This document shows positions 38,514-41,870 of a stretch of 64,000 nucleotides of DNA, in pieces. This DNA is from a virus. Lineage: Duplodnaviria > Heunggongvirae > Uroviricota > Caudoviricetes. The translations under genes and the position numbers were made by a program. Location: positions 189,232 to 253,231 of the IMG/VR virus record IMGVR_UViG_3300044878_000136; one strand, written 5' to 3'. The stretch's first letter is position 1. Every line of letters begins with the position of its first letter. A model generated the notes under the pieces. That model saw only the letters and a list, made by a program, of their open reading frames with translations, was not told where the DNA came from and did no database searches.

Positions 38514-38888
38514 TTAACGTTTGCGACTAAGACGCTTGACTTGACCTAAGCGGCCTATCTGAGGGTTGTTGCTGGGAGTCGGTGGGATGACACCACGACG
38601 CATTAATGCATCGCCGCTGTAGTCGCCACCTATGCGGCGCATGGCCGCAGTATCCTTGACATCGAGAGCGAACAGGTTCTCGATTAGAGATGGATCAAAT
38701 ACGTGGTTGTTGTTGTCGGTGACCTTCTTGGCTTCTGCCAGTACGTCATCGATCGTCTGCTCACCGATACTCACCAGGATCTGGCGGTTCGGGTTTTCCT
38801 TAACGATGTCAAGGAGGCATTTCAAATCCTCACCTTCTTTGAGGTGGACCAAGACCATCGTGCTGGCGATCTCGCGTACTTCAGGCAT
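38514..38888 (-). CDS. hypothetical protein (124 aa)
   Basis: Operon member. Confidence 0.65.
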   Translation of the reverse strand: MPEVREIASTMVLVHLKEGEDLKCLLDIVKENPNRQILVSIGEQTIDDVLAEAKKVTDNNNHVFDPSLIENLFALDVKDTAAMRRIGGDYSGDALMRRGVIPPTPSNNPQIGRLGQVKRLSRKR

Positions 38889-39483
38889 CTTTGTGTTCCT
38901 TGTTAGCGTGGTATTCTTTAATAGCGGCAGTGTCCGCTTCGAATTCTGCGATAGCTACGTCGATAAACACGGCAACCTTACCGTCCGTCATGCAGGTAAT
39001 GACTTGACTACCGGTATTGGCATCGATGGTGGTTTTCCAGTCCATCTTCGTGAGGGTGTCCATAAGGTCACGCACGGGGTTCAGGAGACAGGTCAGGCTA
39101 AGTCCTGGATTCTCCTCTAGCGCCTTCCGTAACATCTTAGGAGGACCCAGATCAGACGACTGAGAGTGGATCGGCTGAGGGAATCTCTCAAACTGTAGCG
39201 AGACCAACTGATTGCCGTTACCCGTGCCAGTTTGTCGGTATACGGAGAGCATCTTGAGTACGTCGGCCTCAGGCTCAGACAGAAATAGTACTGACCGCTG
39301 CTCCGCCGGAACTTCTTTCTGAAACGCATCCAAGCAGTTGGTCAAGCAGCTGTAATACGTCCGTGCCGAGTGGTGAAGCTCCTCATGTCTACGGAAATGA
39401 TGGATGAACCGACTGAGGTGGTTATCGACGTGGTTCAGGTAACGTTCTGCGATGAAACTTAATCCGGGTTCTAGCGGTGCCAT
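38881..39483 (-). CDS. hypothetical protein (200 aa)
   Basis: GAGGAAGG SD; operon member. Confidence 0.7.
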   Translation of the reverse strand: MAPLEPGLSFIAERYLNHVDNHLSRFIHHFRRHEELHHSARTYYSCLTNCLDAFQKEVPAEQRSVLFLSEPEADVLKMLSVYRQTGTGNGNQLVSLQFERFPQPIHSQSSDLGPPKMLRKALEENPGLSLTCLLNPVRDLMDTLTKMDWKTTIDANTGSQVITCMTDGKVAVFIDVAIAEFEADTAAIKEYHANKEHKDA

Positions 39484-39508: not shown

Positions 39509-39536
39509 GCATAAAGCCGGGAATGTACCCCCGGCT
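39509..39536 (-). terminator. hairpin after the homing endonuclease gene, GCATA class
   Basis: GCATAA-AGCCGGG...CCCGGCT. Confidence 0.65.
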
Positions 39537-39542
39537 CTTGCG

Positions 39543-40295
39543 TTAAACACTGATTGGAGCCTGTTCGACTCCGTGGTTATATTCCGGGTAACGTGGATCT
39601 TTCAATCTAACGCTAACCGTGCGACGCGTGACGCCTAATGCAGCCGCCGCTTCAGATATCGACGGGTAGGATACATTATCTACAACGACTGTAACTTTTA
39701 ACTGTTCTGCGCGAACCTTGGCTGCTGCGGCCATGTTTGCCTTACGTTCTTCACTAAATACTTGACCCTTACGCCTAGGGCGGGAATTCATTATCCTCAT
39801 CTTAGCGCGTGTCTCTTCGGAACGTTTTTGACCACGGGGGTAAGTCGATGGGTCGCGCCTTGCCGCGGCAGCCCTGATCTTCTCTTTGGCCTCTTCGCTA
39901 TGCTTGTGTCCGCGTGAGTAGGTGCGGTTACGATTAGCCTCGTGCCCAGCAGCCGCAAAAGCAGCCATCTTCTCAGCTGGAGCAGTGCCTGGTAACCAAC
40001 TACCCCTAGCGCAGTTGTGTACGTTGGTACAGTTAGGTTTCCCTACACAACGGTCAAGATACTTCTGCTCGACGTCGTAAGCCTCGTCACGACTATCGGT
40101 TACGATTGTTTCTATCGAGATGACAGGATCGTCATTGAAGACCTCCTGTAATCGTGGATTCTTATGGGTATTGGATTTAAGGGTTGAGAGGTGAACATGA
40201 TAGCGCTCGTAGATGTTCGAGGAACTCCCAATGTAATACAGTCCTGATTTAGGATGGGTTATTTTGTACGCACCTGTAGCCTTAGGAATATCCAT
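39543..40295 (-). mobile_element. free-standing GIY-YIG homing endonuclease with NUMOD3-like repeats and a C-terminal HTH
   Basis: GAYKI..LYYIGSS..ERY (GIY-YIG), E..YLD, the repeats HSEEAKEKIR / RSEETRAKMR / FSEERKANM, and YPSISEAAAALG. More AT-rich codons than the neighbours. Confidence 0.9.
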
Positions 40296-40311
40296 GATTT
40301 TACCGTTAAGA

Positions 40312-40336
40312 GCATAGAGTCGGGTTTCCCCGACTC
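40312..40336 (-). terminator. hairpin after the helicase gene, GCATA class
   Basis: GCATA-GAGTCGGG-tttc-CCCGACTC (GAAA loop on the minus strand). Confidence 0.7.
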
Positions 40337-40346
40337 ACGCTTGTGA

Positions 40347-41870
40347 TTAGACACTGATGGGGGCTTGTTCTACCCCATGATACAGTACCTTATTTTTGAA
40401 AAAAGCCATCTTGTTCTCGTGATACCGAACGTGTTTATCGATACTCGTGGAGCAGAAGTAGAAGAACTCTGGGGTGATGTCCGGCCAGTCTTTCAACCGA
40501 CGTGTACGCCCCAAGGTTTGTTCGTTCGACTGCTGAGAATCGATAGCGGTGGTCATCAGACCGATACGCAGGTTCTTGATGTCTACCGCAGTACCGGCGG
40601 AGAGCACAGTACTGATGATGATATCCGACGCCTCAAACACAGACATCTTGTCACCAGACACGTAGCGCCCGATCGAGAGATTCGGGAACTTCTTCTGGAG
40701 GTACTTCTGCACCAACGTACAGAACTTAACCGTACCGCAGAAGATCAACATCTTCTGACCATTCTCCATTACCTTGACGAACTTCTCGTTCGCGCACCAA
40801 TGGATGAGATCCAGGTAGTTCTTGAGTTCCACCCGGTTCTTGGCAGTCATCATCGAGGCTTCGTACGTGGTGTGGTTGTAAGCCCCACCGAAACCTTTCC
40901 AACGCAATGCCTTAGGCCGTTGTAGCTGGTACTTGATCGCACAGACCTTGATGTACACGTCGTAGTAATCGCCGTTATAGCGCTCAGGACGCGGATACAT
41001 CAGCTCGTACATCTTCGTCATGAAGGCGTCCTGAGTATCCAGGGTGGCCGACAAGGTGATGAACTTCGGAATGTGGGTGTAGCAAAACAGCTTCATTACC
41101 TGATGGGGGTTTTGGTGACCCTCGTCAAGTGCTGCCATCCCGATGTTCAACCGACTGAAGAACTCGCCAGGAGCAATCGGATAGGTTTCCGACACGCCGT
41201 TGGCTTCAAAGTCCTTGATGTATGCCGAGTAGGTGTTGATGGAGATGAAGATGGCCGTGGTTTTACCCAAGTCTCCCTCCAGCGCCATGTGCATGATGGC
41301 CGATAGCGATTTACCACCGCGTACCACCAGCAACTCACCTGCCTTGAAATGGAAAGACTCTTCCATGTCAGGGGTCCAACGGTCAATAAAGCCGCCTTTC
41401 ATGAAGAAGCACGAACGCAATCCCAGTTGGTTCATGGAGTACTTCGTTAAGAAGGTCTTCCCTTTACCGGTCTGGAGTGTAACGATCTTGTTCGAGCCCT
41501 CAGATAGGATGTGGTTGATGATCTTAGGCTGAGGATCCCTTGGCTCAGGGAGATCCTTGACCTTGAACTTCACCCGGTGACGATCCTCCACAGCGAAGGA
41601 ATGTTTGTGGACCACATACTCAGCCTCACGGATCTGATTGTACGAGAGGTGATCCAGAAACGGTTGAAGTGCGTTGATGTGAAGTCGATAGTAGGTCCGA
41701 CTGTCGTTCGCCGAAGCAAAAACCTTCGCCGCCTTGTAGGACTTCACTCCCTCGGTGATGACCATCTCGAACTGCACCAACCCACGGCAGAAGGAGTCAA
41801 TCACTTTCTTCTGGATATGGGAAGGTTCGGTGATCATGAAGCAGTGACTAAATACATCGATCTTCATCAT
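40347..41870 (-). CDS. superfamily 2 helicase (phiKZ gp75-like)
   Basis: LQTGKGKT (motif I), DEGH (II), LSAT (III) and QTLGRTRR (VI). Confidence 0.9.
   Translation of the reverse strand: MMKIDVFSHCFMITEPSHIQKKVIDSFCRGLVQFEMVITEGVKSYKAAKVFASANDSRTYYRLHINALQPFLDHLSYNQIREAEYVVHKHSFAVEDRHRVKFKVKDLPEPRDPQPKIINHILSEGSNKIVTLQTGKGKTFLTKYSMNQLGLRSCFFMKGGFIDRWTPDMEESFHFKAGELLVVRGGKSLSAIMHMALEGDLGKTTAIFISINTYSAYIKDFEANGVSETYPIAPGEFFSRLNIGMAALDEGHQNPHQVMKLFCYTHIPKFITLSATLDTQDAFMTKMYELMYPRPERYNGDYYDVYIKVCAIKYQLQRPKALRWKGFGGAYNHTTYEASMMTAKNRVELKNYLDLIHWCANEKFVKVMENGQKMLIFCGTVKFCTLVQKYLQKKFPNLSIGRYVSGDKMSVFEASDIIISTVLSAGTAVDIKNLRIGLMTTAIDSQQSNEQTLGRTRRLKDWPDITPEFFYFCSTSIDKHVRYHENKMAFFKNKVLYHGVEQAPISV

Follow-up and report, generated by a model that had tools for sequence, protein, structure and literature searches.

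A GIY-YIG homing endonuclease gene as a probable free-standing cassette in the helicase gene end of a jumbo phage, with the presumed original gene end displaced downstream

Results

A helicase gene and the adjoining gene end in the same peptide

We analysed a 64,000-nt stretch of a Caudoviricetes genome (IMG/VR record IMGVR_UViG_3300044878_000136; hereafter the window), in which a helicase ORF (40347-41870) and an adjoining ORF (39543-40295), both on the minus strand, each terminate in HGVEQAPISV followed by a stop codon. The locus comprises the following features, with hairpin z scores calculated against shuffles.

40347..41870, minus strand: SF2 helicase gene (507 aa, phiKZ gp75-like), the putative host gene of the insertion, adjoining the non-virion RNA polymerase genes
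40350..40454, minus strand: last ~35 helicase codons (473-507), diverged and probably foreign or co-converted, judged by identity, synonymous rate and CAI
40350-40379, minus strand: recoded HGVEQAPISV of the helicase, the presumed functional tail, within the diverged tract
40311..40341, minus strand: putative cassette-borne, terminator-like hairpin ending TATGC (-21.8 kcal/mol, z -5.3)
39576..40295, minus strand: endonuclease proper, residues 1-240, with a GIY-YIG domain (~40053-40274), a NUMOD3 linker and a putative HTH-like region at the C-terminus
39543..39575, minus strand: putative displaced helicase tail remnant, HGVEQAPISV and stop, as an in-frame extension of the endonuclease ORF
39509..39541, minus strand: putative native helicase terminator-like hairpin ending TTTATGCCCC (-23.9 kcal/mol, z -3.2)
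38881..39483, minus strand: downstream 200-aa gene, the right-hand homology flank, with a homologous ORF in all relatives

The two copies of HGVEQAPISV-stop, at 40347-40379 in the helicase and at 39543-39575 in the endonuclease ORF, are unlike at 7 of 30 bases and 7 of 10 codons, with changes at third bases alone. The initial annotation had reported this shared end with exclusively silent differences, and we confirm it in both ORFs (7/7 changes silent). In simulation, seven random substitutions in a 30-nt tail were all silent with p = 1.5e-5, and we conclude from the sequences that both tail copies have diverged under protein-level selection. Moreover, every copy is trailed by its own stable hairpin, as had also been noted before and is borne out by the folding energies given above, and in each of them GC..G base pairs with TATGC. 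The first hairpin lies between the helicase stop (40347-40349) and the start of the endonuclease gene, and past the second comes the ribosome-binding site from which the next gene would be translated. The same layout recurs in three independent assemblies (the window and the related loci L008 and L010), which led us to reject an assembly artefact. The further claim that the endonuclease copy uses the more genome-typical codons holds in part: with the long ORFs of the window as reference, the CAI of the downstream copy is higher than that of the helicase copy (0.70 vs 0.57, a weak difference over only ten codons), but GC3 does not separate the two (5/10 vs 4/10, again over ten codons each).

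The helicase, called essential in the initial annotation, is widely conserved. Matches to it were found by tblastn in 308 phage records, where the annotation reads DNA helicase or RAD2/SF2 helicase; PHIKZ075 is among them. Pfam Helicase_C gave a weak match. A C-terminal tail of the form ...KVL.HG.EQAP..V is kept across the helicase homologues. A preprint on transposon mutagenesis of phiKZ is silent on gp75 in its main text. As a separate observation, relatives carry a LAGLIDADG intein in the helicase P-loop, and the window is without it.

The second ORF encodes a predicted I-TevI-like homing endonuclease

The second ORF matched the Pfam GIY-YIG family PF01541 with 34.4 bits (cut-off 22.6) and NUMOD3 with 28 bits (cut-off 20.4), and HTH_8 and HTH_23 scored 17-18 bits, under their cut-offs, at its C-terminal region. 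A single-sequence search against PDB sequences gave zero matches; a profile built from 21 homologues of the endonuclease matched the I-TevI catalytic domain (1MK0/1LN0) with an E value of 5e-24. Y21, R31, H35, H44, E76 and N91 are invariant among the homologues and Y10 is nearly so, and we take these conserved Y, Y, R, H, H, E and N residues to correspond to the catalytic residues of I-TevI. The ORF is therefore predicted to encode an intact, I-TevI-like GIY-YIG homing endonuclease (its gene is hereafter the HEG). GC3 is 0.47 in the HEG and 0.70 in the helicase gene. An intron- or intein-encoded endonuclease was rejected, because the helicase ORF runs uninterrupted to its stop and the endonuclease starts 52 nt beyond it. 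This agrees with the earlier proposal of an insertion without an intron, in the form of a free-standing GIY-YIG cassette at the 3′ end of an unbroken helicase ORF.

The endonuclease is patchily distributed among related loci

We recovered 15 related loci, 10 of them empty and 5 with a homologous HEG at the same spot; the loci named as empty alleles are L001, L002, L011, L034-L037 and L041-L045. Empty alleles have the order helicase, terminator, next gene. With the window counted, the 10 empty alleles stand beside 6 occupied ones, which are scattered on the helicase tree. HEG homologues of ~60% identity occupy the locus in L008, L009 and L010, and an upstream helicase copy and a downstream displaced copy flank the HEG in L008 and L010 as they do in the window. 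The occupied alleles differ in what has become of the displaced tail and of the enzyme: L010 has a HEG with an in-frame tail remnant, the HEG of L008 ends immediately ahead of a remnant that is out of frame and whose differences are still silent only, L009 has a HEG and no tail remnant, and L046 has neither a remnant nor an intact nuclease, its GIY-YIG core having suffered an in-frame deletion. The HEG at this locus thus shows the signature of mobility, namely patchy presence and decayed copies. Among public phage records, a DNA-level search returned two short helicase matches only, at ~71% identity, and the closest cultured relative, with a helicase protein 44% identical, was too distant to serve as an empty allele. 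TGA is the helicase stop codon in three of the five occupied alleles.

The alignment of HEG homologues also bears on the end of the window's enzyme. The homologues stop 1-3 residues past a conserved DY, and the last ten residues of the window's endonuclease are therefore foreign to the HEG proper. This is in line with the initial view that the endonuclease adopted the original tail as its C-terminus, since the remnant is fused in frame and is absent from the ends of the homologues.

It had further been suggested that the shared peptide points to a common binding partner or localisation signal. In that reading, the C-terminal peptide would be selected in both proteins as a common tag and would have been captured by the endonuclease for its function, which would be consistent with the conservation of the tail across the helicase family, with the in-frame fusion in two occupied alleles (the window and L010) and with the silent nature of all differences between the copies. 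The suggestion is contradicted by the homologous endonucleases at the same site that lack the peptide: those of L009 and L046 end 1-3 residues past DY without any remnant, and that of L008 stops before it. Because the out-of-frame remnant of L008 has still diverged silently only, silent-only divergence does not need translation of the remnant, and a single fusion ancestral to the window and L010, with in-frame odds of one in three, suffices for the fusions observed. We therefore find a shared functional peptide unsupported and its selection in both proteins highly improbable. We consider it very improbable, too, that the helicase peptide is a docking or import tag that the HEG lineage of the window and L010 captured in frame as a route to the phage nucleus or to the partner of the helicase, with the fusion being adaptive.

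The downstream copy resembles relatives without the element

If the downstream copy is the original one, empty alleles should match it, as the initial annotation predicted, and they do so for the terminator and in L008, but not for the coding bases of the window. In alignments with the empty alleles L001, L002, L011 and L035, the 48 nt past the downstream copy scored 28-34 of 48, compared with 6-14 of 48 for the 48 nt past the helicase copy, which scored 34 of 48 against the L010 cassette. In layout and sequence alike, the region of the downstream hairpin is almost the same as what follows the helicase stop in these four empty alleles. The L008 remnant is identical to the nearest empty-allele tails at 28 of 30 bases and the upstream copy of L008 at 24 of 30, while each of the window's two copies matches the empty alleles at ~22 of 30 coding bases, without discrimination. 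These comparisons indicate that the downstream terminator is the native one and that the displaced downstream copy is likewise native, being closest to relatives without the element. Further downstream, an extra ORF of 117-140 aa lies between the terminator and the 200-aa gene in relatives and is missing from the window.

With the polarity reversed, the helicase tail would be native, and a cassette made up of the terminator, the endonuclease gene and a carried tail fragment would have been inserted directly past the helicase stop, the downstream copy being the imported one. The equal likeness of the window's 30-nt copies to the empty alleles is compatible with this order, as are two observations in other loci: the helicase end of L010 is native-like, with a synonymous divergence from L002 of 0.32 in tail and gene body alike, and at a different locus of L034, where another GIY-YIG gene lies between two copies, the upstream copy is native and the downstream one diverged. 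We nevertheless regard reversed polarity as quite improbable for the window, because the downstream copy is contiguous with a native-type terminator and the downstream genes, because the L008 remnant agrees with its nearest empty alleles far better than with the other remnants (20-21/30), and because the break in codon usage and divergence at the window's helicase end fits a foreign origin.

The last ~35 codons of the helicase gene are diverged

This break is visible in several measures. Over codons 473-507, nucleotide identity to the closest relatives drops from ~0.85 to 0.60-0.68, and synonymous differences at identical residues between the window and L001 amount to 0.55 in the 3′ tract versus 0.27 in the gene body (p = 0.002). 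Synonymous divergence over the last 40 codons is raised in the pairs window-L001 (p = 0.002), L008-L042 (p = 0.01) and L046-L043 (p = 2e-4). The CAI is 0.58 in the 3′ tract, 0.71 in the gene body and 0.53 in the HEG, and C473, N486, F490 and KN492-493 of the window's helicase are states typical of the other helicase clade. The low-GC diverged stretch begins at ~40454-40460 (codon 473), and the AT-rich helicase end had thus been placed too far downstream when it was described as reaching back to ~40403. Similarly, the replaced tract, first estimated at ~17 codons, is probably longer and closer to ~35, because the last ~35 codons are diverged and have HEG-like codon usage. The helicase end of the window is probably of foreign origin; its donor was not found among the sampled relatives, to every one of which the tract is 60-68% identical, and an exact search of IMG/VR with 25 nt of the cassette hairpin gave zero matches.

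A different history would start from two identical native copies, of which the helicase copy was then silently changed in place under selection, either for escape from the endonuclease or against repeat recombination that deletes the cassette. Such recoding would directly account for the tail peptide being identical within each genome and unlike between genomes (ISV, VMV and VNV endings among the window, L008 and L010); otherwise, this identity implies that donors and recipients were close relatives, or that another force was acting. It would also fit the comparison of the window with L010, in which the left end of the cassette (40340-40266) is 91% identical and the adjoining helicase tails only 60-62%, so that the replacement tail was not simply inherited with the cassette. 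In addition, the empty alleles among themselves show a synonymous-divergence hot spot at the helicase 3′ end. This agrees with recoding in place, and some of the divergence seen in the window may be a feature of the region as such. Against this history, the diverged tract of the window extends ~25 codons upstream of the duplicated part, its other-clade residues (C473, N486, F490 and KN) are not producible by silent change, its codon usage is like that of the HEG, and the adjoining terminator is clearly non-native. We therefore hold recoding in place to be unlikely, and favour a foreign replacement end.

The helicase end seems to be particularly prone to exchange or escape. Tentatively, the synonymous hypervariability that all lineages show over the last ~40 helicase codons might be the trace of an arms race, in which endonuclease cleavage is countered by silent escape of the target site, although we lean against this possibility. 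Inspection of the alignment for an immunity-site candidate, that is, a position consistently separating occupied upstream tails from empty alleles, brought out none apart from the TGA helicase stop noted above.

Discussion

We consider it likely, from sequence comparison, that a free-standing, I-TevI-like GIY-YIG cassette has entered the helicase 3′ end of a chimallin-encoding jumbo phage, and that the displaced native tail is now read by the endonuclease. Three parts would make up the cassette: a replacement end for the helicase gene, a hairpin of its own that has a TATG motif, and the gene for the endonuclease. On its arrival, the original last ten codons, stop and terminator would have been pushed behind the endonuclease, which would have lost its own stop codon and now read through the ten displaced codons. 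In a mixed infection with a cassette-free relative, the enzyme would cut the native helicase end or terminator region, and the break would be repaired from the cassette-bearing genome, with the helicase body as left homology and the remnant, native terminator and downstream genes as right homology. About 35-45 helicase codons would be co-converted alongside the cassette. The helicase would remain whole, and therefore neither an intron nor an intein would be needed. The sequences show the anatomy of the locus; that the enzyme cuts, where it cuts and in what order the steps took place is what we infer, and the recoded tail might conceivably be immune to cleavage. The duplication itself most likely had a single origin, for which we envisage the mechanism put forward for mitochondrial mORF gene hybrids: homologous repair at the left end, combined with illegitimate or microhomology-based joining at the right.

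If this explanation is correct, a selfish endonuclease that brings along a spare gene end can settle in the coding end of a conserved jumbo phage gene with neither an intron nor an intein. A single locus would then present several stages together, namely empty alleles, an in-frame remnant, an out-of-frame remnant, remnant-free copies and a copy whose nuclease is dead. For genome annotation, a C-terminal peptide common to neighbouring proteins can be the footprint of a mobile element and is not necessarily a functional motif.

The window's HEG shares with I-TevI and Seg-type enzymes the GIY-YIG domain with its conserved residues, the NUMOD3-type linker and, putatively, the C-terminal HTH-like end. 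Unlike I-TevI, which resides inside a group I intron, it is without an intron, and like the T4-like Seg-type genes of intronless homing it is free-standing beside conserved genes and patchy among relatives, with predicted co-conversion of the flank (PMC2988022). Seg and Mob genes are described as lying between genes and cutting a neighbouring gene, and duplication of the end of the target gene is unmentioned in that review of T4 (PMC2988022). Homing endonucleases affect competition between nucleus-forming phages: an intron-encoded endonuclease of PhiPA3 acts against PhiKZ and matters in co-infection (PMC11620839). The PhiPA3 enzyme and the window's HEG are thus both homing endonucleases of nucleus-forming jumbo phages, but their architectures differ, as the former is intron-encoded and comes without a replacement gene end (PMC11620839).

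A literature search of partial coverage for a phage description of a HEG with a duplicated gene end gave fungal mitochondrial papers only. The mORF gene hybrids of fungal mitochondria, for example those of Allomyces macrogynus atp6, Rhizopus oryzae atp9, Mortierella cox2 and Glomus atp6, atp9, cox2 and nad3, have the same architecture with mostly or wholly silent divergence between copies (PMC3630166 and works cited there). Judged by sequence features, the layout in the window matches that of the mORF hybrids, and the architecture is already known there. In both systems, on our reading of the window, a conserved gene has an endonuclease ORF (GIY-YIG or LAGLIDADG in mORFs) inserted in its 3′ end, its coding sequence is completed in frame by an inserted C-terminus, the native C-terminus has moved downstream, and the native copy is nearest to element-free relatives. 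Unlike mORFs, the element in the window has a dsDNA jumbo phage as host and not an organelle, its endonuclease has its own start behind the cassette hairpin, out of phase with the upstream gene, and the endonuclease gene continues at its 3′ end into the displaced native tail. The duplicated coding stretch is also short in the window, 10-13 codons, and the duplication includes the terminator.

The helicase locus and its endonuclease ORF

Chimallin-type genes and genes of the non-virion RNA polymerase are present in the 264-kb IMG/VR virus record that contains the window, and every gene discussed here lies on the minus strand.

Gene order around the helicase 3' end
RNA polymerase beta-like gene, minus strand, first in order, before the 655-aa ORF
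655-aa ORF, minus strand, between the RNA polymerase beta-like gene and the helicase
40347-41870, minus strand, helicase, after the 655-aa ORF
39543-40295, minus strand, GIY-YIG ORF, after the helicase
38881-39483, minus strand, 200-aa ORF, after the GIY-YIG ORF

The initial annotation had described a C-terminal end shared by the helicase and the GIY-YIG ORF, in two silently different copies each followed by a hairpin, and we confirm this anatomy by direct observation. The helicase terminates in ...KNKVLYHGVEQAPISV-stop and the GIY-YIG ORF in ...RYPEYNHGVEQAPISV-stop, and the ten codons common to both copies carry seven differences, all at third positions (p=1.5e-5 that seven random substitutions in the shared stretch are all silent). 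A strong hairpin with TATGC within its base stands 3' of each copy; the two fold at -21.8 and -23.9 kcal/mol, and 0/200 and 1/200 shuffles, respectively, folded as well. GC..G/TATGC-closed hairpins recur 3' of genes in this phage clade (window 40311-40341 and 39509-39541; L001, L002, L010 and other related loci), and the next gene starts 15-30 nt beyond them. In phiKZ, TATG marks late promoters, those of the non-virion RNA polymerase, so these hairpins may be terminator-promoter units.

We identify the GIY-YIG ORF as an I-TevI-like homing endonuclease gene (HEG), apparently intact and of foreign composition. It matches the Pfam families GIY-YIG (34.4 bits) and NUMOD3 (28 bits), each above the cut-off, and its C-terminal region gives sub-threshold Pfam HTH matches. 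A profile built from 21 homologues matches the I-TevI catalytic domain (1MK0, 1LN0; E 5e-24), and in the family alignment Y21, R31, H35, H44, E76 and N91 are invariant and Y10 nearly so. Both GC3 (0.47 vs 0.70) and CAI (0.53 vs 0.71) are lower in the HEG than in the helicase.

Empty and occupied alleles in relatives

Searches with the helicase and the HEG as queries recovered 15 informative loci. Ten of these are empty (listed as L001, L002, L011, L034-L037 and L041-L045); in these, a hairpin terminator with TTTATGCCC(C) at its end comes after the helicase, and then a 117-140-aa ORF and a homologue of the 200-aa ORF. The other five carry a HEG ~60% identical to that of the window at exactly the same position. 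In the occupied locus L010 the HEG continues in frame through QVLYHGTEQAPVNV, which copies the tail of the L010 helicase; in L008 it ends at TAG, and the following bases encode, out of frame, VLYYGVEQAPVMV, again matching the tail of that locus's helicase apart from nine silent differences. L009 lacks both the remnant and the second terminator, and L046 lacks the remnant and has the GIY-YIG core of its HEG deleted in frame. In a helicase tree that excludes the intein and the final 45 codons, both main clades have occupied alleles interspersed with empty ones. This observed comparative pattern is what invasion, decay and loss of a homing endonuclease would be expected to leave.

The 117-140-aa ORF (MTNP...), present 3' of the helicase terminator in 15/15 relatives, is missing from the window, where its place would be at ~39484, after the native terminator and before the start of the 200-aa ORF; no copy was found in the rest of the genome.

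The initial annotation had also predicted a match between empty alleles and the downstream copy, and this was borne out. Over the 48 nt from the stop codon, alignment of the downstream copy to L001, L011, L035 and L002 scores 34, 33, 33 and 28 of 48, and that of the upstream copy 6, 6, 6 and 14. It is the equivalent element of L010 that the upstream post-stop region matches (score 34), and the window and L010 are 91% identical over the stretch that runs from the hairpin into the beginning of the HEG; L008, L009 and L046 have a second cassette class in common. Since the helicase-side terminator matches L010 and the HEG-side terminator matches empty alleles, the former travels with the HEG and the latter is the resident one. 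The window's 30 coding bases are uninformative, either copy matching empty alleles at ~22/30. L042 and L044 are close empty relatives of L008, and their tails match its remnant at 28/30 and its upstream copy at 24/30. Together, the terminator match and the L008 remnant support the core of the earlier reading, in which an endonuclease cassette occupies the helicase 3' end, the upstream tail being the replacement and the downstream one the original.

Extent and origin of the proposed replacement tail

The window helicase is 0.80-0.95 identical to its closest relatives up to ~codon 465, beyond which identity to every relative drops to 0.60-0.68. Silent differences, counted solely at codons with identical residues, are likewise raised in the last 40 codons relative to the gene body, both against L001 (0.55 vs 0.27, p=0.002) and against L002 (0.53 vs 0.30, p=0.009), as they are in other pairs of occupied and nearest empty alleles (L008-L042, p=0.01; L046-L043, p=2e-4). 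For codons 473-507 the CAI is 0.58, near that of the HEG and ~2 standard deviations under the mean of 35-codon windows elsewhere in the helicase, and these codons bear residues typical of the other helicase clade. We read them as a co-conversion tract of ~35 codons from an unsampled donor. A replaced tract had been proposed before; it is probably ~35 codons long rather than the ~17 then suggested, as judged by the identity drop, silent differences and CAI. The last ~40 helicase codons (window 40350-40470 and homologous regions) are a silent-divergence hot spot in nearly every relative pair, empty-empty pairs included, and may bear the mark of endonucleases passing through repeatedly or of escape at the target site.

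Because the helicase tails of the window and L010 are only 60-62% identical despite nearly identical cassette left ends, the replacement tail is not simply inherited along with the cassette; the L010 helicase end is native-like relative to L002. Within each of the window, L008 and L010 the two copies encode one same peptide, and tails vary between genomes. Two processes could account for this pattern, singly or together: repeated rounds of homing among close relatives in which conversion tracts vary in extent, and selection that favours silent escape variants of the target.

A functional role for the shared C-terminal peptide, suggested in the initial annotation, found no support. The ...KVL.HG.EQAP..V tail is conserved in the helicase family and not characteristic of the HEG family, in which homologues stop 1-3 residues beyond a conserved DY. 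Because the L008 remnant is untranslated, yet differs only silently from its partner, silent-only divergence is explained by both copies having been helicase tails in separate lineages, and not by selection on the HEG fusion. The best reading of the fusion in the window is as a side effect of the loss of the HEG stop, together with a few codons, at the junction.

Proposed mechanism and known parallels

What the data show is the anatomy and the comparative pattern; we infer cleavage, its site, immunity and the origin of the duplication, for which we propose homologous repair at one side and an illegitimate join at the other. The feature is real, and its layout is already known from mitochondrial mORF gene hybrids, in which a C-terminus is inserted and a LAGLIDADG or GIY-YIG ORF separates it from the displaced native C*-terminus, the native copy being closest to relatives and the DNA-level differences silent (PMC3630166). 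A review of T4 mobile elements does not mention gene-end duplications of this kind, and our literature search, partial in coverage, found no phage description of such a layout.

Other selfish elements

A LAGLIDADG intein of ~346 aa occupies the helicase P-loop of five relatives (L008, L041, L043, L044 and L046), after codon 138 (GKGK|T; window ~41456); the window lacks it, and L037 (without the intein) and L041 (with it) are almost identical hosts. With the HEG at its end, the helicase gene is therefore a target for selfish elements of two kinds.

Outside the window, the same genome has another I-TevI-like GIY-YIG endonuclease (L007:688-1842, minus strand; G000:C1:41334-44606). It matches Pfam GIY-YIG and I-TevI_DNA-bd and is fused in frame to its downstream gene, and its N-terminal HNPLDDGMSHIN recurs, with codons recoded, as HNPLDDGITHVN at residue 231, which looks like a mirror-image, 5'-end form of the replacement trick.

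In the close relatives L034 (6960-7870) and L036, compared with L035 (6960-7050), a different GIY-YIG gene of 243 aa lies between the 199-aa ORF and the convergent gene. On either side of it stands one of two diverged copies of the last bases of the upstream gene, plus a hairpin and T-run; the upstream copy is that of the empty allele, and the C-terminus of the convergent gene also differs (SSAS vs APAQ).
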